Shown: positions 141 through 45,259 of the stretch, one piece after another | Layout: the number at the start of each line of letters is the position of its first letter | Position numbering within the stretch: position 1 is the first letter of the stretch | Assembly (NCBI GenBank): GCA_963734155.1 | Contig: CAVTGG010000017.1 | Location: forward strand, 131,705-195,704 | Reading direction: 5' to 3' | Source of the DNA: an uncultured Acidobacteriota bacterium | GTDB lineage: Bacteria > Acidobacteriota > Thermoanaerobaculia > Gp7-AA8 | DNA length: 64,000 nt | The notes under the pieces: model-generated | The model's database searches: none | Told to the model about the DNA's origin: nothing | What the model saw: the letters and a program-made list of their open reading frames with translations, nothing else | Translations under genes and position numbers: made by a program

Positions 141-1947
141 ATGTGCGGCATCTACGGGATGGCCAGCACGTCCACGCTGCGCTATCCGGACGTGCTCGAG
201 AAAATGGGCGAGGCGCTGCGCCATCGCGGTCCCGACGGGAGCGCGGTGCTCGATGCGCCGCGCGCGCGCATCGGCACGGAGCGGCTTCGCATCATCGACC
301 TGCACGAGCGCGCCGATCAGCCGTTCGCATCGCCGGACGGGCAGGTGTGGCTCGAGGCGAACGGCGAGATCTACAACGCCGCCGAGATCCGCGCGCGCTA
401 TCCCGATTATCCGTATCGCTCGCACTCCGACGTCGAGACGATCCTGCCGCTCTACCTCGAGCACGGCACCGACGCGATCGCGATGCTCGACGGCATGTTC
501 GGCCTCGCGATCTGGGACGGCCGCAGCGGTACGCTGATCCTCGCGCGCGACCGCGCCGGCGAGAAGCCGCTGTTCTACACGCGGATCGGCGGCGAGGTCG
601 TGTTTGCATCCGAGCTGCAATGCCTGCTGCGCTATCCCGAGCTCTCGCGCGAGCTCGATCGCGAAGCGCTCGCCGGTTATCTCGCGCTCGGCTACATCCT
701 CGAGCCGCGCTCGCCGTTCACCGCCATCCGCCGCGTGCCCGCCGGCGCGTTCATGGTGTTCAACGAAGGCGGCGAGACGACGACGCGTTACTGGGATCCG
801 GCGAGCTTCGCCATGCAGCCGCGCGATCCGCGCGAAGCGGTGGCGGAGCTGCAGCGCCTGTTCGAACAGGCGGTGACGAAGCAGGTCATGTCCGACGTGC
901 CGGTCGGCGTGTTCATCAGCGGCGGCCTCGATTCATCACTGCTTGCGACGCTCGCATCGAAGGCGATCGGCGTCGACAAAGTGCACACGTTCTCGGCGCA
1001 ATTCGCCGAAGAGTCATATGACGAAAGCCGGGACGCGGCGGAGCTCGCGAAGCGAATGCGCACGCGCCATGTGCCGGTGCGCACGGACGAAGAGACGCTG
1101 CGCGAGGCGCTGCACCACGTGACGACGCGCGTCGCCGAGCCGCTCGCCGATCCGGCGATCCTGCCGACGTTCCTCCTCGCGCGTACCGCGCAGCAGTACG
1201 TGAAGGTGATTCTCAGCGGCGAAGGCGCCGACGAGTTGTTCGGCGGCTATCCGACCTACCTCGGCCACAAGATCGCGCCAAAGTACGAAGCCCTTCCATC
1301 GCTGCTCCGTTCCGCCCTCCGCAAGCTCGCCTTCTCCATCCCGCCCTCGGGAAAAAAAGTCACGTTCGAGTTTCTCCTCAAACGCTTCGTCACCGACGCC
1401 GAGAAGCCGTGGATCGAGCGGCACCTGTCGTGGTTCGGCACCGGCGCGTCTTCCACGCTGCCTCCACTCGTTGTATCGGATCACGATCCTCTGACGGGAG
1501 CCATGCTTCTCGACTACCAAACCTACCTGCGCGACAACCTCCTCGTGAAAGTCGATCGCGCGACGATGCTCTCGTCCGTCGAAGCGCGCGCCCCTTACCT
1601 CGACCGCTTCCTCACCGCCTTCGCCCTTTCGCTTCCACCCGAACTGCGCGTCCGCGGCCTAACAACGAAGTGGATCCTGAAGAAAGCCGCGGAGAAGTGG
1701 ATCCCGAAGGACGTCATCTACCGCCGCAAACGCGGCCTCAGCGTCCCCATCGCCGGCTGGATCAACGGCAGCCTCCGCACCGAAGTCGATCGCCTGCTTG
1801 CGCCCGCACGTTTACGCGAACAAGGAATCGTCGACGCCGACCGCATCGGCGAGCTGTTGCAACGCGCACCGCGAGAACCGCGCAAACCACGCGAAGACGC
1901 TGTGGGCGGTGATCATGTTGCAGTATTGGATGGAGAACTGGGCCTAA
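141..1947 (+). CDS. asnB: Asparagine synthetase (glutamine-hydrolyzing), with an apparent +1 frameshift near 1866-1893
   Basis: N-terminal MCGIYG Ntn-amidotransferase start followed by SGGLDSS PP-loop. The conserved C-terminus ...HAKTLWAVIMLQYWMENWA* is in the +1 frame and ends at TAA 1945-1947. The frame-0 ORF instead runs on to 2186 through a repeat element and is not protein-like there. Confidence 0.8.
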
Positions 1948-2013
1948 GAAAAGCAGAAAGCAAAAAGCAGAAGGAGTTTGATTTCTGCTTTTTGCTTTTT
2001 GCTTTCTGCTTTC
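1947..2013. repeat. Heptamer-unit palindrome (GCAGAAA/GCAAAAA units) between convergent asnB and a minus-strand ORF; probable bidirectional terminator
   Basis: agaaaagcagaaagcaaaaagcagaagg ...loop... atttctgctttttgctttttgctttctgctttc form a long inverted repeat. Confidence 0.7.
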
Positions 2014-2573
2014 AAATTGCCGGCAACGCCTCGATGTTCCCCACCGACCACCCGCCCGCGTGGGGGACGAGCGAGATCCAGTACCACTGGCCGTGCTCGC
2101 CGGCGAGGGAGACGCGGACGAAGAGACCGGCGTGGCCTTTGCGGAAGGGGTTGGGGGCGGGGGCGGAGAGCTCGACGATCATTTGATCGGTGCGGCGGTA
2201 GGCCTTGGCCGAGTCGATCGCGATCCACTGGCAGCGGCTTTCGGTGAGCGTCAGCGGGATCTTGCGTTGCGCGGATTGCATCGCGATCGCGGCCACTTGC
2301 GCGTTCGGCTTCTTCGGCGCGGGGCCGGACAGTGCGGCGATCGTTGCCGGCGATGCGATCGGCTGCGTCGTGCTCACGATCGCCACCGGCGCACCTTCGG
2401 CGACGCCTTCGGCTTTCAAGCGCAGACAGAACGTCTCGAGGATGCCTTGCGGGATCGTGTTCCAATCGGGCGCGAGCGGCATTTGCGGCGGCTGCTGCGA
2501 TGCGCAGGCAAAGCAGAACGCAGAAAGCAGAAGGCAGAACGCAACGCGGTAATGTCCCAGCACGCCATCCCAT
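2012..2573 (-). CDS. Hypothetical small secreted protein or lipoprotein
   Basis: High-GC3, non-R-rich ORF ...FCLLLSAFCFACASQQPPQMPLAPDWNTIPQG...GNIEALPAI. The hydrophobic signal-like N-terminus is encoded by a GCAGAAC heptamer repeat. The start is uncertain (GTG near 2573 or an internal ATG). Confidence 0.4.
2504..2549. repeat. Half copy of the GCAGAAC heptamer-repeat element, lying in the 5' coding region of the 2012..2573 ORF
   Basis: gcaggcaaagcagaacgcagaaagcagaaggcagaacgcaacgcgg. Related to the elements at 1947-2013 and 11072-11160. Confidence 0.6.
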
Positions 2574-2611
2574 TCTCCGTTATCTTTGCCGCCAATCGGT
2601 AGCCAGTTTTC

Positions 2612-6748: not shown

Positions 6749-6766
6749 GGGATCATTTTACGCGGC

Positions 6767-8666: not shown

Positions 8667-8680
8667 GCAGTGACAACGTC

Positions 8681-8712
8681 AGGCGTGGACGATCTCCACG
8701 CCTGATTTTTTG
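8681..8712 (+). terminator. Rho-independent terminator downstream of csbD
   Basis: Stem aggcgtgga / tccacgcct with loop cgatc, followed by gattttttgtt. Confidence 0.8.
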
Positions 8713-11043
8713 TTAGAGCTTCTCCACGACCTCGCCTAACACGTACGAGTCATACTCGCCGTCGCGATACGGGCCGAACGCCAAAGTCGGGTTCGCGGCC
8801 TTCGACGACAGGCGCTCGTACATCTCGCGCACTAGTTCCTTTTTCACCTCCAGCGCCTCGGGCGAGAGCTCGCCGCGGAGCGAGAAGAGACGCTGGAAAT
8901 CGCCGCGCGGAAGTTTCAGCGGGCGGCGGACGTCATCGGAGCGCGGGTCCCATTCTCCGATCAGCACTTCGTCCTCGAGATCGTTCGAGCTCGTCTTCAC
9001 GCAGATCACGATCTCGCTGCCGATCAGCCGCTCGCGCGTCGTCGTCGGATGCGGATCGAATGCGCGCGCCGGCTCTTCTTCGTTGTGCAGCTCCTGACGC
9101 AGCAGCATGAACAGCGATTCCGGCACCTCCAGCGGCGTCACTTCGTCCGCGTCGCCTGCCGCGAACGGGACCATTTCGCCGACTTCGATGCGATCGAGTC
9201 CCTTGAGCGAAACGCTGCCGAGGAGGCGGATGCCGAGCATTTCGACCTCGGAGACGCCCGGCGCGAAGGCGATGAACGTTCCGAACGAAGTCTTCACCCT
9301 GTAGAGTTGCTGCGCCTCCGACGACAGCTCGTTCGACAGCTCCTGCACGAACGGCGCGGAGGCGACGATGCCTTCGTTGACGAGGTGTCCGTTCGCATCG
9401 AGGTACGCGTAAAACTCGCGCGCCTGCTGCGTGTGATCGATGACGTCCGCGCCGCGCAGCGGTGCGAAGAACTGCTGCACCTTCGTCTGGTCGTAGCCGT
9501 GCTGGATGAGGAACGACGCGATCTCGTCGATCTCCTTGTTCGACTTTCCCGTCGTCAGGCGCGACAGCTCGACGATGCCGGGTCCGTAGAACTCGGTGAT
9601 CACTTCGTTCGCATCGGATGCGCTTCTCATCGGCAGCAGCCGGTAGTAGCCGTAATTGAGCGCGATGCGCAGCCCCTTGTTGAACGCGAATCCCTTGCGC
9701 TTCATCTCGGAGTAGTAGCGCTGGATCTCGATCGCCGCGCGCACGAGGCGTAACGCGCGGCGCGTGGTGTAGAACGCGCCGTCGCCGAGGAACTTCTCGA
9801 ATTGCAGGAGGTGCCGCTGCGCGATGCCGTCGAGCTTGCGCTGGAAGACGAGCATCTGCCGGTACGAGCGGATCTCTTCCTTCCCGCCGCCGCGGCGGAT
9901 CTGGCCGAGGGTCTCGGAGAAGGCGGAGATGTCGTAGATCATCCCGAAGCGATGGATCATCGGATCGACGACGCCCGGCCGTCCGAAATCCATCGGCCGC
10001 GTGGAGCGCGAGAACGACGTCGCACCGCGGCGATCGGCGGAGACGACCTCGCCATCGGGAAGCGTGTTCGTCCAGACGATGCCGCGGCGCAGCTGATTGA
10101 GCACCGCGAACTCGCGCACGCGTCGCGCGATCAATTGGAACTGCTCGCGCTCTTCACGCGTGACCGCGTTCTGTGCCGCGGGATGATCGAAGAGAAAGTT
10201 TTCGAATCGCGGATCGAGCAGCAGCGCGAGCGTGATTCCCTGCTCGGGATTCGAGCCGAAGAGCGGCAGCGCCGCGCGGAACACCCGCTCGCGTTGCACG
10301 AGATCGTTCGCCGTCGTGCGCAGTCGTTCGTAGGAATCGCGGAAGGCCTGGAAATCGCGGCGCAGATATCCGTTGAGAAACGAGCGCAGCTCGCGCAGAT
10401 CGGGTCCGATGAATTCCTCGGTGAGGATCAGGACGTCGTCCTGCAGCAGACGGAAGAACTGCAGGCCGCGCTGCTCTTCGCCTTCGAGCAGATTTCCCGC
10501 TTTCGCCGAAAGCTCGGTCATCTGCTGCCGCGTCTCGCTGACCCAGCGGCCGAAGATGCGGTACTTCAACGTGTCGCCGAGGGAGCGGCCCACTTGCGTG
10601 TCGGCGGCGCTCACGCGGCGAGGGAGTCCGCTGAAATGGCGCGCGAGATCGAATGAATGTGCGAGCCAGAAAATCGCGTGATAGTCGCTCAGCAGATTCG
10701 ACATCATCGCGTTCTCGGCGGCCTTCATCAGCGACCCGACGTAGATGTTGAACGCCATCGCCGCCTTGTCTTTCGCATCCGTGGCCCGCGTGACCTGGAA
10801 CGCCGTCTCCTCGGTGAGCCAGCGGTCGAGCTTCGACTCCAGGTCTTTCAGCAGCAGCGTCTCCGAGACCGGATAGCCGAACGACGGCTGCTGCGTCTCG
10901 TCCGCCGGATAGATGCGCAGCGGCTGCGGCAGCAGCATCTCCGGCTGCGCGAACAGCTCCCGCAGCCCGCGCTCGAGGTCCATCGGCAGCAGGAACGTCG
11001 CTGCGTCGGGGCGCTGTTGGAGATAGGTGACGAGGGATTTCAT
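8713..11043 (-). CDS. Large cytoplasmic protein with a central class-III nucleotidyl cyclase (CHD)-like domain (probably divergent or degenerate)
   Basis: GMIYDISAFSET (FxDIxGFT-like metal Asp), KFLGDGAFYTT (second Asp), and LRIALNYGYY...FYGPGIVELSRL in place of the IRIGIHTG...WGDTVNLASR motif, so the catalytic Asn is replaced by Glu. About 340 aa at the N-terminus and about 220 aa at the C-terminus have no recognisable domains. Confidence 0.7.
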   Translation of the reverse strand: MKSLVTYLQQRPDAATFLLPMDLERGLRELFAQPEMLLPQPLRIYPADETQQPSFGYPVSETLLLKDLESKLDRWLTEETAFQVTRATDAKDKAAMAFNIYVGSLMKAAENAMMSNLLSDYHAIFWLAHSFDLARHFSGLPRRVSAADTQVGRSLGDTLKYRIFGRWVSETRQQMTELSAKAGNLLEGEEQRGLQFFRLLQDDVLILTEEFIGPDLRELRSFLNGYLRRDFQAFRDSYERLRTTANDLVQRERVFRAALPLFGSNPEQGITLALLLDPRFENFLFDHPAAQNAVTREEREQFQLIARRVREFAVLNQLRRGIVWTNTLPDGEVVSADRRGATSFSRSTRPMDFGRPGVVDPMIHRFGMIYDISAFSETLGQIRRGGGKEEIRSYRQMLVFQRKLDGIAQRHLLQFEKFLGDGAFYTTRRALRLVRAAIEIQRYYSEMKRKGFAFNKGLRIALNYGYYRLLPMRSASDANEVITEFYGPGIVELSRLTTGKSNKEIDEIASFLIQHGYDQTKVQQFFAPLRGADVIDHTQQAREFYAYLDANGHLVNEGIVASAPFVQELSNELSSEAQQLYRVKTSFGTFIAFAPGVSEVEMLGIRLLGSVSLKGLDRIEVGEMVPFAAGDADEVTPLEVPESLFMLLRQELHNEEEPARAFDPHPTTTRERLIGSEIVICVKTSSNDLEDEVLIGEWDPRSDDVRRPLKLPRGDFQRLFSLRGELSPEALEVKKELVREMYERLSSKAANPTLAFGPYRDGEYDSYVLGEVVEKL

Positions 11044-11071: not shown

Positions 11072-11160
11072 GGCAGGAGAACGCAGAACGCAGAACGCAG
11101 AATGGAGAACGAAGAAATTTCTCAATTCTCCGTTCTGCGTTCTGCGCTCTGCGTTCTGTC
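11072..11160. repeat. Long GCAGAAC-heptamer palindrome in the divergent intergenic region
   Basis: gcaggagaacgcagaacgcagaacgcagaatggagaa ... ttctccgttctgcgttctgcgctctgcgttctg. The stem is about 35 bp. Confidence 0.7.
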
Positions 11161-11175: not shown

Positions 11176-11898
11176 ATGCGTCCCGTTCCCCTCCCATCCG
11201 CCGCCTGTCCCCGCTGCAACGGCTCGGGATGGGTGCCGCTGCCGGGCGATTCGCTGCGCGTCGAGCCGTGCGGATGTCAGGGCGATTTGCGGCGGCAGCA
11301 GCGGATTGGCAGCGCGAGTATTCCGAAGCGCTACGCGCACTGCACACTCGACACGTTCCGAGAGAAATCGACCGTGCTGCGCAACGCGAAGCGGCGCGTG
11401 CAGGAGTTCGTCGACCTCTGGCCGAACACGCCCGAAGGAAAAGGGCTGCTGCTGATGGGCGGCTGCGGCGCGGGCAAGACGCACCTCGCCGTCGCCGCGC
11501 TGCTCGAGATCATTCACAACGGCAAGCCGGGGCGGATGCTGTTCTCGAACTTTCAGGACCTCATCCAGGAAATCCAGGCCTCGTTCGACTCCGATCAGGT
11601 GCCGAGCAAATCGGAGCTTCTGCGCCCGTTGCTCGAAGCCGACCTGCTCGTGCTCGACGAGCTCGGATCGCAGAAGCCGACGAACTTCGTGCAGGACGTC
11701 CTCTATTACGTGATCAACACGCGCTACAACTCGGAGTTGGCGACGATCTTCACCACGAACTACTACGACCGCACCGGCGAGGCGAAGGAAGAGACGCTCG
11801 AGCAGCGGATCGGCACGCGGCTGCGCAGCCGGCTCGCGGAGATGGCCGAGCGGCTCGAGTTCACCGGCGCGACGGACCATCGGCGGAACACGCTGTGA
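11176..11898 (+). CDS. DnaC/DnaI/IstB-family AAA+ ATPase with an N-terminal zinc ribbon (putative helicase-loader-like)
   Basis: CPRCNGSGW...CGC zinc ribbon. Walker A GGCGAGKTHLAVA. Walker B LLVLDELG. Confidence 0.8.
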   Translation: MRPVPLPSAACPRCNGSGWVPLPGDSLRVEPCGCQGDLRRQQRIGSASIPKRYAHCTLDTFREKSTVLRNAKRRVQEFVDLWPNTPEGKGLLLMGGCGAGKTHLAVAALLEIIHNGKPGRMLFSNFQDLIQEIQASFDSDQVPSKSELLRPLLEADLLVLDELGSQKPTNFVQDVLYYVINTRYNSELATIFTTNYYDRTGEAKEETLEQRIGTRLRSRLAEMAERLEFTGATDHRRNTL

Positions 11899-12842: not shown

Positions 12843-14132
12843 GCGCCTACGGCGCCTTCTTCTCCCGCGACGCGCGCGCGTTCCGCCCGTCCGCCATCCG
12901 CGCATTCGCAAAGCTGATCAACGACCCGGGCGTGATCTCGTTCGCCGGCGGCTCGCCGAACCCCGAGACATTTCCCGCCGAGCGGATCGCCGCAATCGCG
13001 GAGCAGGTCGTGCGCGAGCGTCGCACGGTGGCGCTGCAGTACGGACCGACGCGCGGCTTGCCGCGGCTCTGTTCGTTCATCGCGGATTTGTGCAACGCGC
13101 GGTTCGGCGGCGAGACGCCGCCGGGCCAGCCGGCGGGGACGCCGGCGTTCCGAAGCAACGCCGGCGCAACGCCTCGGAACGCCGGCGTCTCGCCGGCTGG
13201 TCAGGCGGCGTCTCGCCGCCTCACTCCGGATGACGTGCTGACGACGACCGGCTCGCAGCAGGCGCTCGATCTCATCGCCCACACGCTGCTCGATCCCGGC
13301 GACGTCGTCGCCGTGGAGTTGCCGACGTACATCGGCGGCTCGTCGTCGTTCTTCGCGCGCAGCGCGGAGCTCGTCGGCGTGCAGCAGGACGACGAAGGAA
13401 TCGTCCCCGAGTCGCTGCGCGAAGTCGCGTCGCAAGCATCGCGTGAAGCTGCTCTACACGATCCCGAATTTTCAGAACCCGTCGGGACGCCTGATGACGC
13501 AGGCGCGCCGCGACGAAGTGCTCGCGATCGCCGAGGAGCGCGACTTTCTGATCATCGAAGACGACCCGTACGGCGAGCTGGTGTACGTCGACGGCGCCGA
13601 CACCACTCCGATGAAATCGCGCGATGTGCATGAGCGCGTTTTGTATCTCGGCTCCTTTTCCAAAGTGCTCGCGCCCGGCCTGCGCTGCGGCTGGATCGTC
13701 GCGGCGAAGCCGCTCCTCGAGCGGCTGGAGATCGCGAAGCAGGCCGCCGATCTCTGCTCCGGCATGCTCGATCAGTCGATCGTCGACGAGTTCTGCAGCA
13801 GCGGCGAGCTCGCGCCGCAGATCGAGCGCGTCCGCGCGTTCTATCGCGGCAAGCGCGGCACGCTCATCGACGCGCTGCAGCAGCACTTCGCCGGCCGCGC
13901 CGAATGGACATCCGCCGATGGCGGCCTCTTCACCTTCGTCACGCTGCACGACGACATCGACACCGCGGCGCGCGTGCCAGATGCGGTCGCGCGCGGCGTC
14001 GCGTACATTCCGGGCGGGCCGTTCTTCGTCGATGGAAGCGGGCGCAACACGATGCGGCTCACGTTTGCGAAGGAATCTGACGAACGGATGCGAGAAGGCG
14101 TGGCGCGGTTGGCGGGCGTGTTCTATTCTTAG
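12839..14132 (+). CDS. PLP-dependent aminotransferase class I/II (2-aminoadipate/aromatic aminotransferase-like). It carries an in-frame palindromic element insertion and an apparent frameshift near 13431-13440
   Basis: N-terminal FFSRDARAFRPSAIRAF...GGSPNPETFP, then TGSQQALDL, KLLYTIPNFQNPSG and SFSKVLAPGLRCGWI. The N-terminal half is in frame 2 and the C-terminal half in frame 0. No canonical start codon was found near 12839. Confidence 0.7.
13108..13220. mobile_element. Palindromic MITE/RPE-like element (family 1), inserted in-frame into the aminotransferase CDS
   Basis: Near-perfect palindrome cggaacgccggcgtctcgccggctggtcaggcggcgtctcgcc with its inverse. It adds about 36 aa (ETPPGQPAGTPAFRSNAGATPRNAGVSPAGQAASRR) between the conserved ARFGG and LTPDDVLTTTGSQQAL. 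A second copy lies at 20026-20125. Confidence 0.75.
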
Positions 14133-14764: not shown

Positions 14765-14842
14765 GCGGTTGCGCGGTTACGCGGTTACGCGGTTGCGCAG
14801 CGGGTTCTGCCGCGCGACCGCGCAACCGCGCAACGCGCAACC
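14765..14842. repeat. Heptamer-unit palindrome (GCGGTTA/GCGGTTG units)
   Basis: gcggttgcgcggttacgcggttacgcggttgcgc ... gcgcaaccgcgcaacgcgcaacc. Confidence 0.7.
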
Positions 14843-16669: not shown

Positions 16670-18899
16670 CCCCGTCGCTCGCTGTTCCGCAACGCCCCGA
16701 GCTTCACCAGGCCCTCATCGAGCTCCTCCGCCAGCGCGGGAATCGCGTTCTCGCCGTGAAGGAGATTCACGAGCGGCTCGCGGACCACGACGTCACGCGT
16801 GAAGAAGTCGCCACCGCGGCCGAAGAGTTGGAGAACGACGGCGTCATCATCGCCGTGCGCGGCAAGCGCTACTCGCTGCTCGAGTTCACGCCGTACGTCA
16901 CGGGGCGCATTCGTGTGCATCCGGACGGGCACGGCACGTTGCCCGGGCCACCGCCCGCGGGCAGCGGGCAGCGGGCAGCGGGCGGCGATGAAGGCATTTA
17001 TGTCGATCGGCGCGCGATGAAAGGCGCGATGAACGGCGACCTCGTCGTCGTCCGCATCGACAAGCGCCGTCCCGAATACAAGAAGGTGCGCGACCGCCGC
17101 TACATCGCCGGCGAGGTCTCGCAGGTGCTGCGCCGCGCGAACCGCACCGTCGTCGGGCGCTTTCACAAAGAGCCCGAGCCGTTCGTCGTGCCGTTCGACG
17201 TCCGCCTCGACACCGACATCCTCATCGAGCACGGCGCGACGCTCGAGGCGCGCGACGGCGAGATGGTGAACGTCGAGCTCGATCGCTATCCCGATCGCTC
17301 CACGCATTTCGCGAGCGGCCGCGTCGTCGAGACGCTCGGCTTCATCGGCGAGCCCGGCGTCGACATCGAAGTCGTCATCCGCAAGCATCACATCGCGCAC
17401 AATTTTCCCGACGAGGTTCTCGCCGCGGCGGACGCGATCCCGCTCGAAGTTCCCGAGGACGAGATCGCGAAGCGCGTCGATCTCCGCGACCGCAACATCG
17501 TCACGATCGACGGCGAGACGGCGAAGGATTTCGACGACGCCGTCGAAGTGCAGAATCTTCCGAACGGCAACCTGCTTCTCGGCGTGCACATCGCCGACGT
17601 CTCGCATTACGTCACCGAGGGCAGCGCGCTCGATCGCGAAGCCTTCGAGCGCGGCACGTCGGTCTATTTTCCCGGCCGCGCGATCGCGATGCTGCCGGAG
17701 CGCCTCTCGAACGTCATCTGCTCGCTGAACCCGCAGATCGAGCGGCTCACGTTCTCGTGCGAGATCGAGATCGACCGCCGCGGGCGCTTCGTCCATCACA
17801 AGATCTACAAGTCGGTGATCAAGACCAAAGAGCGGATGACGTACACGAACGTCAACGCGATCCTCACCGAGCATCACACCGGAACTGCAGCGAGCGCTAC
17901 GGCTACCTGCTTCCCGATTTCCAGCGGATGCTCGAGCTGTACGAGATTCTCCGCGCGCGCCGCGATCAGCGCGGCTCGATCGACTTCGACCTACCCGAGG
18001 CCGAAGTGATGCTCGACAAGGCCGGCGACATCGAGGCCATCCGTCCCTCGGAGCGCAACGTCGCGCATCGCATCATCGAAGAGTTCATGCTTTCCGCGAA
18101 CGAAGTCGTCGCGCGCGAGCTCGTGTTCGCGGCGCAGCCGGGCCTCTATCGCGTGCACCAGCAGCCCGATCCGCAGAAGCTCGCCGATCTGAAAGAGATC
18201 CTCAAGGAATTCAAGCTCACGCTGCGCGGCGATCTCGAAGACATCCGCCCCGCGGAGCTGCAGCGCGTGTTGAAGTCCGTCGCCGGAACGCCGGAGGATC
18301 GCTTCCTCACGAACATCGTCCTCCGCTCGATGAAGCGCGCGTTCTATTCGGAAGAGAACACCGGACACTTCGCGCTCGGGCTCGAGCACTACTGCCACTT
18401 CACGTCGCCGATTCGCCGCTATCCCGATCTGATCGTGCACCGAAGATTGTTGGAGCTGATCTCGACCGGCGCGTTGTACGGCGAGCGGCGCGATGACATC
18501 GAGCGCGCGCATCCGCTGTACGCGCAGCAGTCGAGCGATCGCGAGCGCCGCGCCGAGGAGGCGGAGCGCGAGGTGCTGGAGTGGAAGAAAGTCATCTTCA
18601 TGCGCGACAAAGTCGGCAACGAATACAGCGGCATCGTCACCGGCGTCGCGCCGTTCGGCCTCTTCGTCGAGCTGGATGAAATCTTCGTGCAGGGCATGGT
18701 GCCGGTGGCGACGATCGGCGGCGATTTCTGGCGCTATCACGACCGTTCGCATCGGATGATCGGCGAGTCGTCTTCGCGCGAGCTGCGCCTCGGCGATCAC
18801 GTGAAGGTGCGCGTGGAGTCGATCGATGAGGACCGGCATCAGCTCGAGTTCCGACTGCTGGAAGTCGGCGGCGCGGCGATCAAAGAGCGCGAACGCTAA
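16666..18899 (+). CDS. rnr: Ribonuclease R, with two single-base insertions near 17878 and 17889 that split the ORF
   Basis: RNB domain motifs FTIDGETAKDFDDAV and GHFALGLEHYCHFTSPIRRYPDLIVHR, and a C-terminal S1 domain. Removing one base at each of two positions yields the consensus ILTEHHPELRERYGYLLPDF. Confidence 0.85.
16945..16990. repeat. GGGCAGC heptamer repeat inside the rnr coding region (in-frame low-complexity insert GSGQRAAGG)
   Basis: ccaccgcccgc gggcagc gggcagc gggcagc gggcggcg. Confidence 0.55.
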
Positions 18900-20025: not shown

Positions 20026-20125
20026 GAACGCCGCCGTCCCCGGCGGCTGGTCCGGCGGCGTCCCGCCGCCGCGTGGCGCCGAGACGGCGCCTGACCAGCC
20101 GGCGAGACGCCGGCGTTCCGATGCT
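20026..20125. mobile_element. Palindromic MITE/RPE-like element (family 1), intergenic copy
   Basis: cggaacgccgccgtccccggcggctggtc ... gaccagccggcgagacgccggcgttccga. It is the reverse-orientation near-identical match of 13108-13220. Confidence 0.75.
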
Positions 20126-20554: not shown

Positions 20555-20690
20555 TCGTCGTTGCCCTTCTCCCCGCTTGCGGGGAGAAGGTGGCCGAAGG
20601 CCGGATGAGGGGTCGCTCCTCGCGCCATGCGCCGCCCCTCACGCGGCGCTGCGCGCCACCCTCTCCCCGCTTGCGGGGAGAGGGCAACGC
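20555..20690. mobile_element. Palindromic MITE-like element (family 2, CTCCCCGCTTGCGGGGAGA core) between convergent genes
   Basis: Two modules: cttctccccgcttgcggggagaaggtggccgaaggccggatgagggg and its imperfect inverse cccctcacgcggcgctgcgcgccaccctctccccgcttgcggggagaggg. A second copy lies at 49705-49824. Confidence 0.75.
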
Positions 20691-26999: not shown

Positions 27000-28805
27000 T
27001 CAGTGCTGCATGCGCAGTGGATCCTCGAAGATGAAGAAGAAGCAGGGCTGATTGAGCAGTTGCGCGAGCGACTGCTGCCGGCGCAGCAGATCGTTGAACG
27101 AACGATTCACTCCTTCGCCCGCCGGATCCGGAACGGTGATGCCGGTGAGGAACCCCGACAGCGTTCCGGTCTGGCTCACGTGCGTGAAGACGGCTCCGGT
27201 CTCGTCGCGGTGGCAGGAGTTGCACGTATTCAGGGAGAGGTGGTGCCGCAGATTGGCCTGCGGCGGACCGACGATTGTGGCGCTCGGCTGCGGCGCCGGG
27301 CCGTCCCAGCGCATCTTGCCGAGGCTTCCGGCGCTCGGGACTACCGGCGCGGCGCCGCCGAGGAACGGGTTGCCCGCGAAATCATCGGGAACGACGTGCT
27401 TGTCCTGCACGATGAGCGCCGCGTTCGCGTTGGTGTAATCGGCAAGCGTCTGCGTCTGATTGAGGGTGATGTCCGGCGTCTGCTTCACCGTGTCCTCGAA
27501 CAGATGGCCGGTGGTCGACGAAAGCCGGAACTCGCGCAGCTCCCACGGCGACGTGAGTGCGATCTCGTTCGTGCGCAGCTGATTGAGCGAGCTGTGATTC
27601 GGAGTCTGCGCCGGATTGGTCCCCGCCTCGGTGAACTGGACGGTGATTGCCTCCAGCGCCGCGTTGTACGCCGGCGAGCCGACCGGATTGTTTTTCAGGT
27701 TCTGCCACTGCTGTCCCCAGGCCTTCAGCGAGGGGCAGCTCGGCCGGCGGATGCCGTACTCGAAGATCACCAGGAACGGGCGCGGGTTGCAGTTGCCGTC
27801 CATCAGCGCGAAGACGAAGCGTCCTTCGCCCGCGCTGCCGCCGCCGTAAATCAGGTTCCCGCGCAGATCGATGCGGTTGACGATGGCCACGAGCTTGAAC
27901 GGCGACTTCGCGAGATCGAGCTGGTTGCCGTTGATCTTCGGCCACTGATTGATGACCGTCGAGATCTGCGCGCGGTGCGGCACGATGAAGTCGTTCACGT
28001 TCTGATCGACTTCCCACTTGCGCAGCCACTTCCGCGTGAACGCCGCCGGCTGCAAGCCCGCGCCGGTCGCCATCTCCGACATGAGATGGCCGAACGTCCA
28101 CTTGCCCATCGGCGTGCCGGCGTTGGTGCAGGGGTTGAACGTCCGCTGCGGATCGTTGACCACGCCCGGATCGTTGATCAGCAGAGACGCGGCGGGAACG
28201 ACGGAAGCGGGCGGGACGAACGGAAAGATCGGAATGAACTGACCGGCCTGGATCGGCCTGAGCGCCACCTGAAGACGTTTGTTGTCGGTGAACTTGAGCT
28301 CCTGAACATTCGAGCGGTTCGGAACGGGCGGAATCTCGCGCAGCGATTCGATTTTGCGCTCGTCGAGCTGCGGAATGACGGTCGCCATCAGCTCGCGGCC
28401 GACGAACACCGGAATCTCCTTCGCGCGCAGCACCTGCTCCTGCTGTTCTTTCAGCTGGCCTGCGTCCACGGTGATGAACGCGGAGTGAATGCCGTCGCCG
28501 GCTTTCTCGTCGGGGCGCTCGCCATCGTCGCGGAGCACCGCCTTCTCGCGCTCCAGCTGGATGGTGATGGTGCGCGGCGCGCGCTCGGAACGTCCGAACT
28601 GCACCATCAAGACTGCGTTTCCTTCCTTCGCCGGTTCGCTCAGCAGCCGCACCGCGGCACGCTCGGCGACCGGCGGCGTCATGGTGAGGTCGCGTCTCGG
28701 TTCCGCGGCGATGCCGGCGGTCGGTTGCGCAACCTGCGCGACGACGGCGGCGGCCAGTGCCAAGAGAACGACGATCGTGAGAATGATCACGGGCCTCTGT
28801 TTCAT
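27000..28805 (-). CDS. Hypothetical secreted protein with a C-terminal CxxCH motif
   Basis: Signal/TM MKQRPVIILTIVVLLALAAAVVA. Single CNSCH motif near the C-terminus. No other domains recognised. Confidence 0.65.
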   Translation of the reverse strand: MKQRPVIILTIVVLLALAAAVVAQVAQPTAGIAAEPRRDLTMTPPVAERAAVRLLSEPAKEGNAVLMVQFGRSERAPRTITIQLEREKAVLRDDGERPDEKAGDGIHSAFITVDAGQLKEQQEQVLRAKEIPVFVGRELMATVIPQLDERKIESLREIPPVPNRSNVQELKFTDNKRLQVALRPIQAGQFIPIFPFVPPASVVPAASLLINDPGVVNDPQRTFNPCTNAGTPMGKWTFGHLMSEMATGAGLQPAAFTRKWLRKWEVDQNVNDFIVPHRAQISTVINQWPKINGNQLDLAKSPFKLVAIVNRIDLRGNLIYGGGSAGEGRFVFALMDGNCNPRPFLVIFEYGIRRPSCPSLKAWGQQWQNLKNNPVGSPAYNAALEAITVQFTEAGTNPAQTPNHSSLNQLRTNEIALTSPWELREFRLSSTTGHLFEDTVKQTPDITLNQTQTLADYTNANAALIVQDKHVVPDDFAGNPFLGGAAPVVPSAGSLGKMRWDGPAPQPSATIVGPPQANLRHHLSLNTCNSCHRDETGAVFTHVSQTGTLSGFLTGITVPDPAGEGVNRSFNDLLRRQQSLAQLLNQPCFFFIFEDPLRMQH

Positions 28806-35188: not shown

Positions 35189-35443
35189 ATGCACATGACC
35201 AAAGACCAGGTCACCGCGCTGGCGCAGAAGCGCAGCTGTCCGCGCTGTGACTACGATAAAACGGTCGGGAACGCCCTGTGCCGCCGCTGCCGGAGCAAGC
35301 TTCCGCAGCACATGCGCTCCGGAGTCGAGAACATCCCGTCGAAGGACAGCTGGCTCGTCGGCCGCGCCCTTCGCGCCGCCGCGAACTACTTCGACGTGCA
35401 CTTCCAGTCGATCCGAAATTTTGGCGGCGGACGGAAAAGGTGA
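35189..35443 (+). CDS. Hypothetical small zinc-ribbon protein
   Basis: CPRCDYD...CRRC. The start is uncertain (35168, 35189 or 35195). Confidence 0.4.
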   Translation: MHMTKDQVTALAQKRSCPRCDYDKTVGNALCRRCRSKLPQHMRSGVENIPSKDSWLVGRALRAAANYFDVHFQSIRNFGGGRKR

Positions 35444-35445
35444 TA

Positions 35446-35512
35446 GGTGTTAGGGGATAGGGGTTTGGGGTTAGGAGTTACTTAACCCCAACCCCCTATC
35501 TCCTAACCCCTA
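35446..35512. repeat. G-rich/C-rich heptamer palindrome (TTAGGGG-like units) with G-quadruplex potential; terminator between convergent genes
   Basis: gttaggggataggggtttggggttaggag tta ctt aaccccaaccccctatctcctaacccctacc. Confidence 0.7.
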
Positions 35513-37635: not shown

Positions 37636-38493
37636 ATGAAACGGTTTCTCGCGATTTCAGTGCTGCTCGCGCTCGCTTTCGGCTGCCGGAAGGAGCCCGC
37701 GATCGACGTCACGGCGCACAACAACGACATCCTCAAATGGCGCGCCGACCGCGCCCAGCGCCTGCAGCGCGAAGACGGCTGGCTGAGCCTCATCGGACTG
37801 CACTGGCTCGTCGAAGGAGAGAACAAACCGATCCCCGGCGTGACGTTGATTCGACAGGGCGATGCCATCACGCTTCAGTCCGGCGAGGGGATGACGATCG
37901 ATGGGAAGCCGGTCGCCGCGCCGCTGAAGCTCGCCGATGATTCGTCGGAAAACGGACCGACCGTCGTGCAGATGGGGACGAAGCGATTCCAGGTCATCAA
38001 GCGCGGACCGCGTCTTGGTCTTCGCGTGAAAGACTCGCAGGCGGACACGCGCACGCATTTCGCGGGACTCGATTACTACTCGGTCGATCCGAAGTGGCGC
38101 GTCGAAGCGCGCTTCGAGCCGTACAAGCCGGTCAAGCAGATTCCGATCACCGACATCACCGGCTTGACGTCGGACAACCCCGCGCCCGGCGCGCTCGTCT
38201 TCACCGTCGACGGCAAGGAGTACCGGATCGATCCGATCGTCGAAGAGGGGGAGAAAGACTTCTTCATCATCTTCCGCGACGCCACGAGCCGCGACGAAAC
38301 GTACGGCGCCGGCCGCTATCTCTACGCCTCGCCGCCGGGAGCCGACGGCAAAGTGATCGTCGACTTCAACAAGGCCTACAACCCGCCCTGCGCGTTCACG
38401 CCGTACGCGACCTGCCCGCTCCCGCCCCAGCAGAACCGCCTGCCGATCCGCATCGAGGCAGGGGAGAAAAAGTACCGCGGCGGGCACGCCTAA
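37636..38493 (+). CDS. DUF1684 family lipoprotein
   Basis: Lipobox LALAFGC. Conserved FFIIFRDATS..ETYGAGRYL, DFNKAYNPPCAF and YATCPLPP. Confidence 0.85.
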   Translation: MKRFLAISVLLALAFGCRKEPAIDVTAHNNDILKWRADRAQRLQREDGWLSLIGLHWLVEGENKPIPGVTLIRQGDAITLQSGEGMTIDGKPVAAPLKLADDSSENGPTVVQMGTKRFQVIKRGPRLGLRVKDSQADTRTHFAGLDYYSVDPKWRVEARFEPYKPVKQIPITDITGLTSDNPAPGALVFTVDGKEYRIDPIVEEGEKDFFIIFRDATSRDETYGAGRYLYASPPGADGKVIVDFNKAYNPPCAFTPYATCPLPPQQNRLPIRIEAGEKKYRGGHA

Positions 38494-38504
38494 CATTCGT
38501 CCAC

Positions 38505-38590
38505 ACGTGCCCGTGCCCGCGCCCGTGCCCGAGCCCGGGGTGGGGGAACGAACCACCCACCCCGGGCACGGGCGCGGGCACGGGCACGGG
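38505..38590. repeat. Heptamer-unit palindrome (GCCCGTG units) downstream of the DUF1684 gene
   Basis: cgtgcccgtgcccgcgcccgtgcccgagcccggggtggg gaacgaacca cccaccccgggcacgggcgcgggcacgggcacg. The stem is about 38 bp. Confidence 0.75.
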
Positions 38591-40627: not shown

Positions 40628-41275
40628 GTGATGAGTCTAAAGTCAGTCAACTCGCAGCGGTCCGCCGATGACACACATGAAGGGAAGGCTGCCGTGCTGG
40701 ACGAAAGGCCGCAAGCGCGACCCGAGAAGAAGGGTCGTCCGCGCGTGATCACCCAGAGCCCTGCCGCGCCGCCTGCTTCCGCTGCCGATGACGTCGAGGC
40801 TCTGTACATCGAGCACCGCAGCCTCCTCTTGTACGTCGCCTCGCGCAAGTTCCGCATCCCGGAGTGCGACTCGGAGAATCTGATCCAGGAAGTGTTCCTC
40901 TCGTTCCTGCAGTCGGGAACGAAGATCGACAACGTGCGGGCGTGGCTGGTGGCGGCGATGTGCAACGCCAGCCGGCACTACTGGCGCGCGCAGGGACGGA
41001 CGGAGTCGCTGCCGGAAGACATCAGCGATCACTCCGATCCCGGCTCGCACGGACTCGCCGACCAGTTCGCGACGCAGATGACCGTGCGGCAGGCGCTCCA
41101 GTACCTGCAGCCGCGCTGCCGCGAGACGCTCTGGCTGCACTACTTCGAAGGCCGCTCGGCCGGCGACGTGGCCCGCGAGTTGGAAACGACGAACCGCTAC
41201 GCGGAGAAGCTGATTCACAACTGCCTCAAACGCGTGCGCGAGATCTACCTCAACATCACGTCGGTGAGCCGATGA
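40628..41275 (+). CDS. RNA polymerase sigma factor, ECF/sigma-70 family
   Basis: Region 2 EALYIEHRSLLLYVASRKF...DSENLIQEVFLSF and region 4 AGDVARELETTNRYAEKLIHNCLKRVRE. ATGA overlap with the downstream anti-sigma gene. Confidence 0.8.
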   Translation: MMSLKSVNSQRSADDTHEGKAAVLDERPQARPEKKGRPRVITQSPAAPPASAADDVEALYIEHRSLLLYVASRKFRIPECDSENLIQEVFLSFLQSGTKIDNVRAWLVAAMCNASRHYWRAQGRTESLPEDISDHSDPGSHGLADQFATQMTVRQALQYLQPRCRETLWLHYFEGRSAGDVARELETTNRYAEKLIHNCLKRVREIYLNITSVSR

Positions 41276-42609: not shown

Positions 42610-42699
42610 CCCAAATTGAGGGTAGGGATTTGATGCGCTGCGTCACTCCCTTATTCAAGGGCGCGCCCTCCCTATCGCTTGAGCCTGAGGAGGGCGCAT

Positions 42700-42894
42700 A
42701 TGAGACGGTATACCCGTGGTGTCGCTGCTGCTGTTCTAGCCATCACGCTATCGATCCAGTTCACACCGGTTGTTGCGGCATCGCCGCGCGATCGCGATGA
42801 TTTTCAAACGAAAATCGAGCGGATTATCAATCGACTGCAGCGATTCTTTCGGTTAACCCCGTTCGATAACGGGATCGCCCCGCCCCATCCCTAA
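42700..42894 (+). CDS. Hypothetical small secreted peptide (64 aa) in the low-GC segment
   Basis: GAGGAGGG RBS 6 nt before ATG. Signal-like MRRYTRGVAAAVLAITLSIQFTPVVAA. Confidence 0.4.
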   Translation: MRRYTRGVAAAVLAITLSIQFTPVVAASPRDRDDFQTKIERIINRLQRFFRLTPFDNGIAPPHP

Positions 42895-42953
42895 AACCCT
42901 CCCACCCGCCCGCCCGTACAATACGGCGCGCTCCTGAGGAGGGGTGCGTTCAT

Positions 42954-43877
42954 ATGGGCGACATTTTGGCGGTCCGGAATGTGGTCAAGGTCTTTGGTGC
43001 CGTTCGGGCGGTGGATGGGATCTCCTTCACCGTGCGCCGCGGCACGATCACCGGGCTTTTGGGGCGGAATGGGGCGGGGAAGACGACCACCATTCGGATG
43101 ATCACCGGCATCTTCATGCCGGATTCCGGTGACATCCAGTGGATGGGCGGTGGGGATGGGAGCGGGACGTCGTTCCGCGACCGGATCGGCTATTTGCCGG
43201 AAGAGCGCGGGCTCTACCGGCAGATGAAGATCGTCGAGCTGCTGCTGTTCCTCGCCGAGATCAAGGGCAAGAGGCCGGCGGACGTTCGCGCGAAGATCGA
43301 CCACTGGCTCGAGCGCTTCGAGCTTACCGAAAAGCGCAACGCGAAAGTCGAAGAGCTCTCGAAGGGCAACCAGCAGAAAGTCCAGCTCATCGCCACGCTG
43401 CTCCACGACCCCGAGCTCATCATCCTCGACGAGCCGCAGTCCGGACTCGATCCCGTCAACATGGTCCTCGTCCGCAATCTCCTGCGCGATCTTCGCGCCG
43501 AAGGCAAGACCATCCTTCTCTCCACCCACATGATGGGCGAAGCGGAGCGCATGGCCGACGAGATCATCCTCATCCACCGCGGGCAGGTCGTCCTCGACGG
43601 CAGCCTTGAAGAAGTCCGCGGCGCGAAGCACGCACTGCACATCGACTTCGAAGGCGACGGCGCCTTCCTCAACACGCTCCCCGAGGTGCGGCACGCCGCC
43701 GTCGTCGGCAACTCCGCGGAGATCACGCTCGCCGACGGGGCCGATCCGCAGAAGATTCTGGAAGCCGCGGTAGGGCGCGTTCGCATCCGCCGCTTCGAGC
43801 TCGCCGTGCCCTCGCTCGAGCAGATCTTCATCGAGAAAGTCGGCGCGGAAACCCTCGCCGCGGAGGTGGAGAAATGA
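42954..43877 (+). CDS. ABC transporter ATP-binding protein
   Basis: Walker A GRNGAGKTT, signature LSKGNQQKV and Walker B IILDEP. Confidence 0.9.
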   Translation: MGDILAVRNVVKVFGAVRAVDGISFTVRRGTITGLLGRNGAGKTTTIRMITGIFMPDSGDIQWMGGGDGSGTSFRDRIGYLPEERGLYRQMKIVELLLFLAEIKGKRPADVRAKIDHWLERFELTEKRNAKVEELSKGNQQKVQLIATLLHDPELIILDEPQSGLDPVNMVLVRNLLRDLRAEGKTILLSTHMMGEAERMADEIILIHRGQVVLDGSLEEVRGAKHALHIDFEGDGAFLNTLPEVRHAAVVGNSAEITLADGADPQKILEAAVGRVRIRRFELAVPSLEQIFIEKVGAETLAAEVEK

Positions 43878-45178
43878 AGAAGACCCTCGCCGTCTTCAAG
43901 CGCGAATACCTGGTGGCCGTGCGGAAGAAGATGTTCATCATCATGACCTTCCTCATGCCGCTGCTCATGGTCGTCGCCTTCCTCGGGCCGACGATGCTCA
44001 TGGAGCGCGGCCTCGGCGACAAGCACATCGCCGTCGTCGACGGCAGCGGCCAGCTCGAGTCGGCATTCAAAGCGCCGGAAAAAGACGACAGCCCCGACAT
44101 CGCCATCGGCAAGCGCGGGCGCGACCTCCCGCAGCAGATGATCATCCAGTACGTCGACGCCCACGGCAACGCCGACGTCGACGCGGCCGGGAAACCGTAC
44201 GTCACGCGCCTCGGCGCGAAGGACGGATTCGACGGCGTTTTCGTCCTGCCGCACGACACGCTCACCAACACCGACGCGAAGCTGAAGTACTACAGCCGCA
44301 GCGCCACCGACTTCGTCACCCAGGGCCGGCTCTCCTCGCGCACCAACCGCTTCGTGCAGGAGCGGCGGCTCGCGGAGCGCGGCATCGACAAAGCGGAAAG
44401 TGAAAAGCTCCTCAGCACCCTGAAAACCGAGGGCGTGCAGATCTCGAAGACCGGCGAAGAGAAAAAAGGCGGCATCGCGAACTTCCTCGTCGGCATCGTC
44501 CTCACCGCGCTGCTGTTCATCCCCAGCTTCATCTACGGCCTCGAAACGATGCGCGGCATCATCCAGGAGAAAACGGACCGCGTCGTCGAAGTGCTCGTCT
44601 CCTCCGTTTCTTCGAGACAACTCCTCGTCGGCAAAGTCCTCGGCATCGCCGCGGTCGGCCTCACGCAGATCGGCGTCTGGCTGCTCATGGCCGGCATCGC
44701 CGGCGCCTATGCCGGCGCGGTGGCCACGGCCGGCGGGATGAACGTCTTCGCCATCCTGAAGCCGGCGACCTTCATCTTCTTCGTCGTCTTCTTCATCCTT
44801 TCGTATCTCAGCTACGTCTGCATCTACGCCATCGGCGGCTCGGTCTGCAATTCGGAAAAGGAAGCGCAGCAGCTGATCATGCCCGTGACCATGCCGATGA
44901 TGCTGCCGTGGTTCCTCATCGCGCCGATCCTCACCAATCCCGACTCGAAGCTCGCCGTCGGACTCTCGATGGCGCCGGTGTGGGGACCGCTGACGATGTA
45001 CGTGCGCACGCTCGTCGCCGAGCCGCCGATGTGGCAGATCGCCGTCACGATCGTCGTCTCGATCCTGACGATCTCGCTCTTCTTCTGGATCACCGCAAAA
45101 ATCTTCCGCGTCGGAATCCTCTCGTACGGAAAGCGCCCGACGATTCCGGAGATCTGGAAGTGGCTGAAAGTAGCGTGA
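43874..45178 (+). CDS. ABC-2 family transporter permease
   Basis: ATGA overlap with the ATPase gene. N-terminal TM, a large extracytoplasmic loop and 5 C-terminal TMs. Confidence 0.85.
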   Translation: MKKTLAVFKREYLVAVRKKMFIIMTFLMPLLMVVAFLGPTMLMERGLGDKHIAVVDGSGQLESAFKAPEKDDSPDIAIGKRGRDLPQQMIIQYVDAHGNADVDAAGKPYVTRLGAKDGFDGVFVLPHDTLTNTDAKLKYYSRSATDFVTQGRLSSRTNRFVQERRLAERGIDKAESEKLLSTLKTEGVQISKTGEEKKGGIANFLVGIVLTALLFIPSFIYGLETMRGIIQEKTDRVVEVLVSSVSSRQLLVGKVLGIAAVGLTQIGVWLLMAGIAGAYAGAVATAGGMNVFAILKPATFIFFVVFFILSYLSYVCIYAIGGSVCNSEKEAQQLIMPVTMPMMLPWFLIAPILTNPDSKLAVGLSMAPVWGPLTMYVRTLVAEPPMWQIAVTIVVSILTISLFFWITAKIFRVGILSYGKRPTIPEIWKWLKVA

Positions 45179-45180
45179 GG

Positions 45181-45259
45181 TAGCGGGCAGGCGAGCTGGC
45201 GGGCAAGCGGGCCGGGCGACTGTCTGCTGCCCGCCTGCTCGCTGGCCCGCTGCCCGCTA
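45181..45259. repeat. Heptamer-unit palindrome (GCGGGCA units)
   Basis: tagcgggcaggcgagctggcgggcaagcgggccgggcg actgt ctgctgcccgcctgctcgctggcccgctgcccgcta. Confidence 0.65.

Follow-up and report, generated by a model that had tools for sequence, protein, structure and literature searches.

Palindromes built from short tandem units at gene junctions of uncultured Acidobacteriota and some phages

Eight repeat loci among housekeeping genes

The DNA analysed here, a stretch of 64,000 nucleotides from an uncultured Acidobacteriota bacterium (contig CAVTGG010000017.1; 'the window' below means this whole stretch), has a GC content of 64.7% and carries ordinary housekeeping genes. Interspersed with them are eight short repeat loci, here called P1 to P8, which a first-pass annotation had described as sharing one architecture: several tandem copies of a heptamer followed, after a short loop, by the same copies inverted. 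We read all eight loci directly and found repeats close to where that annotation had placed them. They are listed below, with the RNA folding energy and its z value for the palindromes.

P1, 1947..2014 (repeat 1950-2012): palindrome, unit GCAGAAA/GCAAAAA, period 7, stem 23 bp; −37 kcal/mol, z −4.75
P2, 2508..2546 (repeat 2513-2543), minus strand: tandem-only array, GCAGAAN in 4-5 copies, period 7
P3, 11065..11163 (repeat 11078-11158): palindrome, unit GCAGAAC, period 7, stem 32 bp; −59 kcal/mol, z −9.9
P4, 14760..14842 (repeat 14765-14842), plus strand: palindrome, unit GCGGTTRC, period 8, stem about 25-35 bp; −63 kcal/mol, z −5.35
P5, 16941..16987 (repeat 16957-16987), plus strand: tandem array, GCGGGCA in 4.4 copies, period 7, in a loop of RNase R
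P6, 35437..35519: palindrome, unit GGGGWTA, period 7, degenerate, stem 30-37 bp; −59 kcal/mol, z −6.8
P7, 38504..38592 (repeat 38506-38590): palindrome, unit CCCGTG, period 6, stem 35 bp; −87 kcal/mol, z −9.6
P8, 45178..45261 (45179-45258): palindrome, unit AGCGGGCA, period 8, degenerate, stem 24-27 bp; −72 kcal/mol, z −6.5

An inverted-repeat search returned inverted arms at six of the eight loci, with stems of 23–35 bp that are 84–96% complementary. The RNA folds of these six palindromes range from −37 to −87 kcal/mol (z from −4.8 to −9.9), and none of 200 shuffles matched their stability. The remaining two loci depart from the proposed architecture: 2513-2543 (P2) has no inverted arm and no RNA structure (z = 0.19), and 16957-16987 (P5) has only a short complementary stretch, no full inverted arm and weak structure (z = −2.8). 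Nor is the unit always a heptamer. Tandem Repeats Finder gave period 7 at three palindromes (P1, P3 and P6, over 35444-35480 in the last case) and at both tandem-only arrays, period 8 at P4 and P8 (over 45182-45258 in the latter) and period 6 at P7, so that a strict 7-nt period does not hold. The further proposal of a different 7-mer at each locus is correct in that the window contains at least six units, but GCAGAAN recurs at three loci, and the 16957, 38506 and 45182 loci have a CGGGCA core in common. Runs of four G occur only in the GGGGWTA unit of P6, the one locus with units capable of forming a G-quadruplex; we therefore rejected quadruplexes as the general cause, and the many unit types argue against single-sequence explanations of this kind.

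The elements lie in varied positions with respect to genes. P1 makes up the entire spacer between two convergent stops, the TAA of asnB (1945-1947) and the stop of a small lipoprotein gene on the minus strand (2012-2014), and P6 lies between convergent stops at 35443 and 35510 and overlaps both. P7, which carries an inner core GGGGTGGGGG...CCCACCCC, begins 12 nt past the stop (38493) of a DUF1684 lipoprotein gene, the true start of which is near 37636. P8 separates the stop of an ABC-2 permease gene (45178) from the gene that follows on that strand (start 45295). The element at 11078-11158 (P3) is located, as had been noted, between divergent starts, those of a 776-aa gene (8713..11043, minus strand) and an IstB/DnaA-like ATPase gene (11176..11898, plus strand). 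P4 begins 4 nt past the stop of the thymidine kinase gene; because that stop overlaps the GTG start of the M20 peptidase gene, P4 falls within the first M20 codons. P5 is in rnr, where it does encode GSGQRAAGG, and adds 12 residues (GPPPAGSGQRAA) to RNase R. On its minus strand P2 encodes the hydrophobic core, AFCLLLSAFCFAC, of the signal peptide of the small lipoprotein, as the first-pass annotation had it, although the start codon of this ORF, which ends at 2012, is probably a GTG near 2560 and not the ATG at 2573.

Tandem-unit palindromes were counted with a detector that required a stem of at least 18 bp with at least 78% of positions paired, a loop of at most 40 nt and an arm periodicity of at least 0.68. 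There are six in the window, as against none in 40 second-order Markov simulations of it. Eight loci of the same clade (198 kb; individual loci are designated by L and a number) contain 26, or 1.3 per 10 kb, a density to be read in the light of their sampling from two syntenic regions, which means that counts from different genomes are not independent. By comparison, only two (in L011 and L025) were present in 779 kb from other organisms, a set made up of loci of similar GC content that carry a DUF1684 homologue. Both the excess over chance and its restriction to this lineage are thus plain. Taken together, all loci examined contain 58 tandem-unit palindromes, of period 7 in 40 cases, 8 in 14 and 6 in four.

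Such palindromes might arise as artefacts of sequencing or assembly, from chimeric fold-back reads or mis-collapsed repeats. Some library artefacts can create palindromes, and the window assembly is rich in frameshifts, with at least six in five genes relative to intact orthologues, including those in asnB, an aminotransferase gene, the M20 peptidase gene (three times) and the RNase R gene. These lie at the following positions.

1864-1883, 13434-13486, 14842, 15507, 15844, 17871-17886: frameshifts of the window

They seem to reflect either an indel-prone assembly or pseudogenes. Because of them, single-base irregularities of the units, such as the 7-nt unit at 14834 in the 3′ arm of P4, are unreliable; the window copy of P4 also has a 1-nt deletion that disrupts its reading frame. 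Against an artefact, identical elements are found in independent assemblies. L088 and L089, independent assemblies of the same organism, are 99.996% identical over 22 kb, elements included, and the pairs L083/L084 and L085/L086, independent assemblies from different samples, are 100% identical; the pipelines behind these comparisons were NCBI metagenome-assembled genome (MAG) versus ENA, JGI versus Logan, and ENA versus JGI. Elements also occupy orthologous sites across many genomes and are preserved in frame inside genes. We conclude from the independent assemblies that the elements are not an assembly artefact, and we consider artefacts of either kind extremely improbable.

Gain, loss and replacement of elements

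In a genome scan the window fell among MAGs of the Thermoanaerobaculia (Acidobacteriota), and a protein search with the 776-aa gene beside P3 returned hundreds of orthologues with 71–100% identity. Syntenic loci from eleven relatives were compared. At the same gene junction, different lineages have different units or no element. The junction of the thymidine kinase and M20 genes (P4) has GCGGTTRC in the window and L085, GGTCNCCC in L087, GGTTCCTC in L088 and GTGCTGC in L090; it is empty in L083, L091, L092 and L093, where the thymidine kinase stop overlaps the M20 start. At the P3 site the unit is GCAGAAC in the window and L083, GCAGAAG in L090 and a mixture of GCAGAAC and GAAGAAT in L093, and in L085 the same conserved flanks enclose a GCGGGCR palindrome. 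Where there is no element, the start-to-start spacer at P3 is about 31–33 nt (L087, L088, L092) or 61 nt (L091). L090 also carries at this site (9745-10001) a 49-nt segment, inclusive of the left flank and half a palindrome, that is repeated three times head to tail before the full palindrome.

Further junctions behave similarly. The P8 site has AGCGGGCA in the window, a CCCGYG hexamer in L001 and a double GGCKCATR palindrome in L002, and is empty in L003, where GTAG directly abuts CCCGCT-ATG. At P6, the GGGGWTA element of the window corresponds to a GGCKCATR octamer palindrome in L002 and to a spacer of only 5 nt in L003. Related hexamer palindromes occupy the P7 site in the window, L001 and L002 (in the last of which the DUF1684 gene is frameshifted and only its C-terminal part was aligned); a GCAGAAG heptamer is present there in L011, ATTGTGA in L025, and in L003 a double hairpin that is not of the tandem-unit type. 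Just downstream of its P7-site palindrome, L002 (11826-11934) has a 36-nt unit, CGTAACTTGTGGTGTAGGGCAGGTTTTCCAACCTGC, three times head to tail; as there are no spacers between the units, this is not a CRISPR array. Elsewhere, L002 has a GTGCTGG palindrome that separates two genes whose window counterparts overlap (ATGA). The site orthologous to P1 in L093 has a related element with the common end AGAAAAGC(A/T)G, and that of P2 a full palindrome in L085, degenerate 7-nt periodicity in L087 and L088, and no periodicity in L090.

Several elements are translated. The P4-site palindrome is in frame in M20 in three relatives, with three different units, and adds 26 (L085), 29 (L088) and 24 (L090) residues between the GTG start and the hydrophobic core of the signal peptide, with no alternative start codon downstream of the palindrome in these genomes. 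In L087 the palindrome is upstream of the M20 start, and the start codon itself lies within the 3′ arm. The RNase R loop that accommodates P5 follows HPDGHGTLP; L085 has a full palindrome here, with a 29-bp stem and 30 additional residues in frame, and the insertion is absent from L083, L088 and L090. YfhO starts inside elements in L088, L090 and L093. Coding copies of this kind cannot be terminators.

Elements at different loci of one genome are related to each other. Three copies in L093 have a common unit order, GAATGAA-GAACGCA-GAACGCA-GAATGAA-GAATTGA; at one end, two of them are identical over 11 nt outside the repeats (AAAAGCTGAAT), or over 18 nt once the first unit is counted, and the end of the third, AAAAGATGAAT, is related. 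Both copies in L090 begin with ATGAAGGCAGAAGG and have outer and inner edge units in common. Between genomes, P8 of the window and the element at the P3 site of L085 have the ends TAGCGGGCAG...CTGCCCGCTA in common. In an alignment of seven GAA-type elements, the grouping is by genome and not by site.

These observations bear on the possibility that the elements are purely local by-products, in which a native seed slips and a fold-back mirrors it, independently at each site and with no transfer between loci. Native sequence at a site does often match units or ends: GCGGCTGC in L083 matches the unit GCGGTTGC, GGCAGCG in the L090 rnr gene matches the unit GGCAGCG, CCCGCT in L003 matches TGCCCGCT, and ATGAAG at the YfhO start matches the end of an element. 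Empty sites, moreover, are often mini-palindromes that correspond to the outermost pairs of the element, as with GAGTCTAAA abutting TTAAACTC at P3, GTAG abutting CCCGCTA at P8 and TAAG..CTTA at P6. Such native matches and mini-palindromes agree with elements that grow out of a small hairpin or collapse back to one, and that enter by way of microhomology.

A case for a local event comes from the lipoprotein signal-peptide array, every codon of which is conserved in the window, L085, L087 and L088. Immediately upstream of it L085 alone has a 33–39-nt block, (AAACCAG)x4, that is complementary to the array at 28 of 29 positions and is absent from the window, L087 and L088. The inverted (5′) arm was newly added in place here and looks like the product of one template-switch event. 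However, the seed matches are short, each with a chance probability that we estimate at about 0.03–0.15; copies at different loci of one genome have their non-repeat ends, the units at their inner edges and their unit order in common, and track the genome and not the site; and the same families are found in distant lineages and in a phage. Since ends and unit order are common to different loci, a purely local origin cannot be the whole story, and we regard it as improbable.

The arms themselves may retain traces of slippage. In L085 (2334-2411) one and the same transition mismatch, A·C when read on the sense strand, recurs at most of the 7-nt repeats of the stem, and the P7-site palindrome of L001 has a period of 12 in its 3′ arm and of 6 in its 5′ arm. 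Periodic, arm-specific mismatches would be expected if units slipped within an arm and the two arms were homogenised separately.

The elements extend beyond the close relatives of the window. Tandem-unit palindromes are present in three more distant relatives (73–75% identity), and a scan of viral contigs for (GCAGAAN)x4, which gave 44 stretches, led to 13 viral loci that have such a stretch and hold tandem-unit palindromes. L119 (1-12008, IMG/VR) is a true HK97-type phage contig, with a portal, an HK97-type capsid and a head-tail adaptor, and has six tandem-unit palindromes in 12 kb, of which five share one family and a conserved loop. A related contig, L126 (1-14944, IMG/VR), has five elements. 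The family common to both comprises 9–10 elements with GAATGCA in four to five copies and mostly the loop GAAAGACTTTTGA; several are followed by a right flank, CCTTTCACCCC, and they occupy most gaps between genes on the same strand. A capsid homology search for the host of L119 gave no informative names among its matches. Palindromes with further units (GGAGTGAT, GTCGAAA, AGTAGCC, AGGGATT, GTCAGCY and AAATGCT) are present in other viral contigs (L113 6606-8190; L115 10553-10739; L112 1770-4618; L117 3512-3591; L121 3207-4555; L114 8825-8926), so that the architecture is not confined to a single bacterial clade.

Possible hairpin function and proposed replicative origin

The location of most elements had initially been described as consistent with terminator stems. 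A stem followed by a T run was found only at P1 (1954-2001), where the match arises because the unit is A/T-rich; the five other palindromes have no T run. A canonical intrinsic terminator is present at 8678-8706 (a 12-bp stem followed by TTTTTGTT), which indicates that the genome uses ordinary terminators as well. Intrinsic termination was also rejected on grounds of location, given P3 between divergent starts, P4 in the M20 codons, P5 in rnr and the in-frame copies of relatives. Selection on RNA pairing received no support: in contexts with a clear direction of transcription, stem mismatches read on the sense strand were A·C in 20 cases and G·U in 10. As a general reading, terminator stems are thus not supported, whereas the companion remark that the elements do not resemble ordinary intrinsic terminators is well founded. 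An Rfam scan of the whole window, one of the checks that the first-pass annotation had proposed for comparable elements, gave no match at or above the gathering score.

The elements may nevertheless be primarily functional, as RNA hairpins or DNA cruciforms, with the tandem build being simply the way in which long stems arise and persist. They could be terminators that are independent of a U tract or dependent on a factor, protectors of 3′ ends, RNase III sites between cistrons, or insulators. The great stability of the folds is in keeping with such roles, as is the location of most elements 0–12 nt from stop codons. At least six lineages have a long hairpin of some kind, unrelated in sequence, at the 3′ end of the DUF1684 gene, and in phage L119 elements with the right flank CCTTTCACCCC fill nearly every gap of a block of structural genes on one strand. 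Enterobacterial REP (repetitive extragenic palindromic) elements do have roles of this kind (PMC3733652).

Several of the same observations tell against function as the primary explanation. Five of the six window palindromes have no T run in a genome with canonical terminators; some elements lie between divergent starts that are about 33 nt apart in relatives, or between genes whose stop and start overlap; and termination or cleavage at the in-frame M20 and RNase R copies would destroy the message. Close relatives manage without an element at the same sites, and the mismatches betray no preference for wobble pairs. We likewise rejected the idea that the DUF1684 3′ end needs a hairpin, as a strong one is found only in the close clade: downstream of 55 DUF1684 homologous loci the median z was −0.27, and most, including most homologues outside the clade, have no special or strong structure.

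The orientation of the arms can be argued both ways. The 5′ arm is G-rich in 44 of the 58 elements and C-rich in three or, in other terms, the purine-rich arm comes first and the pyrimidine-rich arm second; non-periodic long hairpins have no clear bias. A consistent polarity suggests that a property of the strand matters, as a functional hairpin would require, but textbook terminators have the opposite polarity to the C-rich 3′ arm seen here. Overall, we consider a primary function the main rival reading, possible but not the likelier one.

The reading that we favour, with confidence that is about evenly poised, is that these are non-autonomous palindromic repeats, similar to the REP doublets known as REPINs or to MITEs (miniature transposable elements with inverted repeats), which are maintained by slippage and template switching and whose effects on transcripts are secondary. 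They would form a lineage-rich class of elements of 60–120 bp, with arms that are short tandem arrays of a 6–8-nt unit, and each genome would hold a few unit families in several copies each. Copies would settle at gene junctions, presumably the sole places where a compact genome tolerates them, and, over times comparable to those that separate species, the same junctions would acquire, lose and exchange them. Replication slippage would duplicate and homogenise units within an arm; fold-back or template switching of the nascent strand would then make and repair the inverted arm; and new loci may arise when unit-length microhomology lets synthesis switch template onto an existing element or, alternatively, through the action of a putative trans-acting enzyme. 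Where transcribed, the elements would be very stable hairpins, with pausing, termination or transcript protection as possible side effects. An element just past a start codon or in a surface loop, if in frame, would simply be translated, with a charged stretch from the purine-rich arm and a hydrophobic stretch from the pyrimidine-rich arm; the polarity of the arms would make either orientation read 'charged then hydrophobic'. In keeping with this reading, the window and about 130 genes called in the related loci include no transposase, reverse transcriptase or other gene for mobility. The data show the anatomy of the elements, their excess over chance and lineage restriction, their turnover at fixed sites, the ends and unit order common to different loci, the in-frame copies and the presence in a phage; from these patterns we infer slippage, template switching, how the elements disperse and the absence of a primary function.

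A number of observations weigh against non-autonomous repeats of this kind. We know of no enzyme that mobilises the elements, so that shared sequence is the sole ground for calling them 'mobile'. Comparison of filled and empty sites at P3, P4, P5, P6, P8, the M20/YfhO junction and L002 1120 gave no target-site duplication, and the compared sites have no fixed terminal motif or common target sequence. Between genomes that are about 90% identical, elements are conserved like their surroundings, P4 having equal copy number and the same loop in the window and L085, and near-identical genomes exhibit no change in copy number; for these reasons we rejected hypermutability at short range. The hairpin at some junctions is kept across about 25% protein divergence, and the strong arm polarity would not be predicted by a purely selfish model. 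Such persistence, together with a density of one element per 2 kb in a streamlined phage module, could mean that the hairpins are useful. The dependence among the cross-genome counts, mentioned above, should also be borne in mind.

A bolder proposal, to which we assign only a slim chance, is that the elements represent a new kind of transposase-free mobile DNA common to phages and their hosts, which would copy itself to new junctions by hairpin priming or template switching through unit-length microhomology. Its fixed polarity would furnish N-terminal extensions that are charged first and hydrophobic next, and it would thereby act as a recurrent source of new signal peptides and a modulator of translational coupling between adjacent genes; alternatively, a putative dedicated enzyme might read a duplex with 7/8-bp periodicity and both write and move the elements.

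Relation to known repeats

Insertion of palindromic sequence in frame into coding regions, as seen in M20 and RNase R, recalls the palindromic elements of Rickettsia, which are reportedly inserted in frame in genes and translated without destroying the protein. Those elements are said to form families of 100–150 bp with a fixed sequence and no tandem units; the likeness is confined to coding insertion, with no relation in sequence.

The nearest precedent, and the positive outcome of the literature check that had been proposed, is found in the inverted heptamer arrays of Xanthomonas. Each genome has 70–75 convergent inverted pairs of GGGAATC arrays, usually with about four copies (Rehm et al. 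2015, PMC4692102). The arrays are mostly intergenic and 0–50 bp from stop or start codons, with some overlapping stops; their type is usually kept between two species although their length varies; they have no link to a transposase or mobile element, and their function is unknown (PMC4692102). As in Xanthomonas, a tandem array of a 5–11-nt unit is closely trailed by an inverted array at the six window loci and in the 58 elements overall. Xanthomonas, however, has one G-rich unit that has been studied as a G-quadruplex former (PMC4692102), whereas at least 12 unit families, with units of 6, 7 and 8 nt, occur here, and the majority are not quadruplex-capable; here there are also unit replacement at fixed sites, in-frame translation and carriage by a phage, and the host phylum is another one, Acidobacteriota. 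Heptamer arrays belong to the long simple sequence repeats with units of 5–11 nt (Mrazek et al. 2007, as cited in PMC4679880 and PMC4692102), among which heptamers are the commonest in bacteria, slippage of the polymerase being the proposed cause (Mrazek 2007, as cited in PMC4679880). The short tandemly repeated repetitive (STRR) heptamers of cyanobacteria and the TAACTGA repeats are likewise intergenic tandem heptamers with several unit types per genome, but are mostly direct arrays, with inverted pairs rare, in genomes of lower GC content (PMC4679880, PMC4692102).

REP elements and REPINs are multi-copy, short extragenic palindromes in genome-specific families beside gene ends, and REP doublets form long hairpins (PMC3733652, PMC3116915). 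Multi-copy families within a genome are found here too, in the 12–64 kb covered per genome, with three copies in L093, two in L090, and five each in L119 and L126. In contrast, REP arms are not tandem arrays and REPINs depend on a RAYT gene (PMC3733652, PMC3116915); neither the ORFs of the window nor the genes called in the related loci, which represent partial genomes, include a RAYT (Y1/HUH transposase), a gene that is present in single copy. REPs also have a fixed GTAG/CGTC tag, whereas here only P4 and P8 are preceded by GTAG; P1, P3, P6, P7 and most relatives have no tag, and CTAG precedes the P3-site element of L085. MITEs differ in combining terminal inverted repeats with a target-site duplication, of which the compared sites had none.

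Template switching is documented to create and perfect hairpins (PMC8794818, PMC5941160, PMC7202029). This quasipalindrome type of mutation offers a replication route to the inverted arm and to mismatch repair, but has been described for single hairpins and not as a source of multi-copy families of tandem-unit palindromes. Intrastrand-triplex repeats are a G/C-rich triplex motif and not tandem-unit palindromes (PMC4666352). What appears to be new are the many families of 6–8-nt units, unit replacement at fixed junctions, concerted evolution between loci, in-frame N-terminal copies, and presence in Acidobacteriota and in a phage.

If the reading as non-autonomous repeats is correct, the Thermoanaerobaculia, abundant and uncultured Acidobacteriota of soil, and some phages carry family-rich palindromic microsatellite elements that remodel gene junctions, turn over between close species and enter protein N-termini. 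They would then provide a natural system for the origin of long hairpins by slippage plus template switching, for the spread of repeat families without an obvious transposase, and for the turning of non-coding repeats into coding sequence such as signal-peptide regions. Inverted heptamer arrays of the little-studied Xanthomonas type would then be known from a further phylum and from phages, in many unit types. In practice, the elements are read through by gene callers, with lengthened or misplaced start codons as the result; programs that predict terminators will overlook or miscall the elements, and long perfect stems can upset assembly and PCR.

Palindromic repeats of other kinds are present in the same genomes. 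The window has two further families, REP-like in appearance and without a tandem-unit build, a GGCGGCGAGACGCCGCC type (13106-13220 and 20041-20104) and a CTCCCCGCTTGCGGGGAG type (20565-20684 and 49740-49797). Relatives hold multi-copy classical REPIN-like double hairpins (GTGGAGCGGCGGGCTTCAGCCCGCCG; in L090, GGAGGGCGGACGTCTCGTCCGCC), sometimes at the exact sites of tandem-unit palindromes in other genomes. They are located as follows.

L003, 11602-11663: REPIN-like double hairpin
L083, 3303, 7891 and 15633: REPIN-like double hairpins
L087, 11102 and 14387: REPIN-like double hairpins
L088, 1445 and 7965: REPIN-like double hairpins
L090, 1100, 7040, 13595 and 15684: REPIN-like double hairpins

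Two genes of the window deserve mention. The 776-aa protein (8713-11043, minus strand) has no Pfam domain and is highly conserved, with more than 1100 homologues at E<1e-20; the best 120 are 71–100% identical, and those with a named source are almost all from Thermoanaerobaculia MAGs. A 601-aa gene, also without a Pfam domain, is present at 27000-28805; between the same neighbours, L002 (560-675) has only a GGTTGCGC octamer palindrome.

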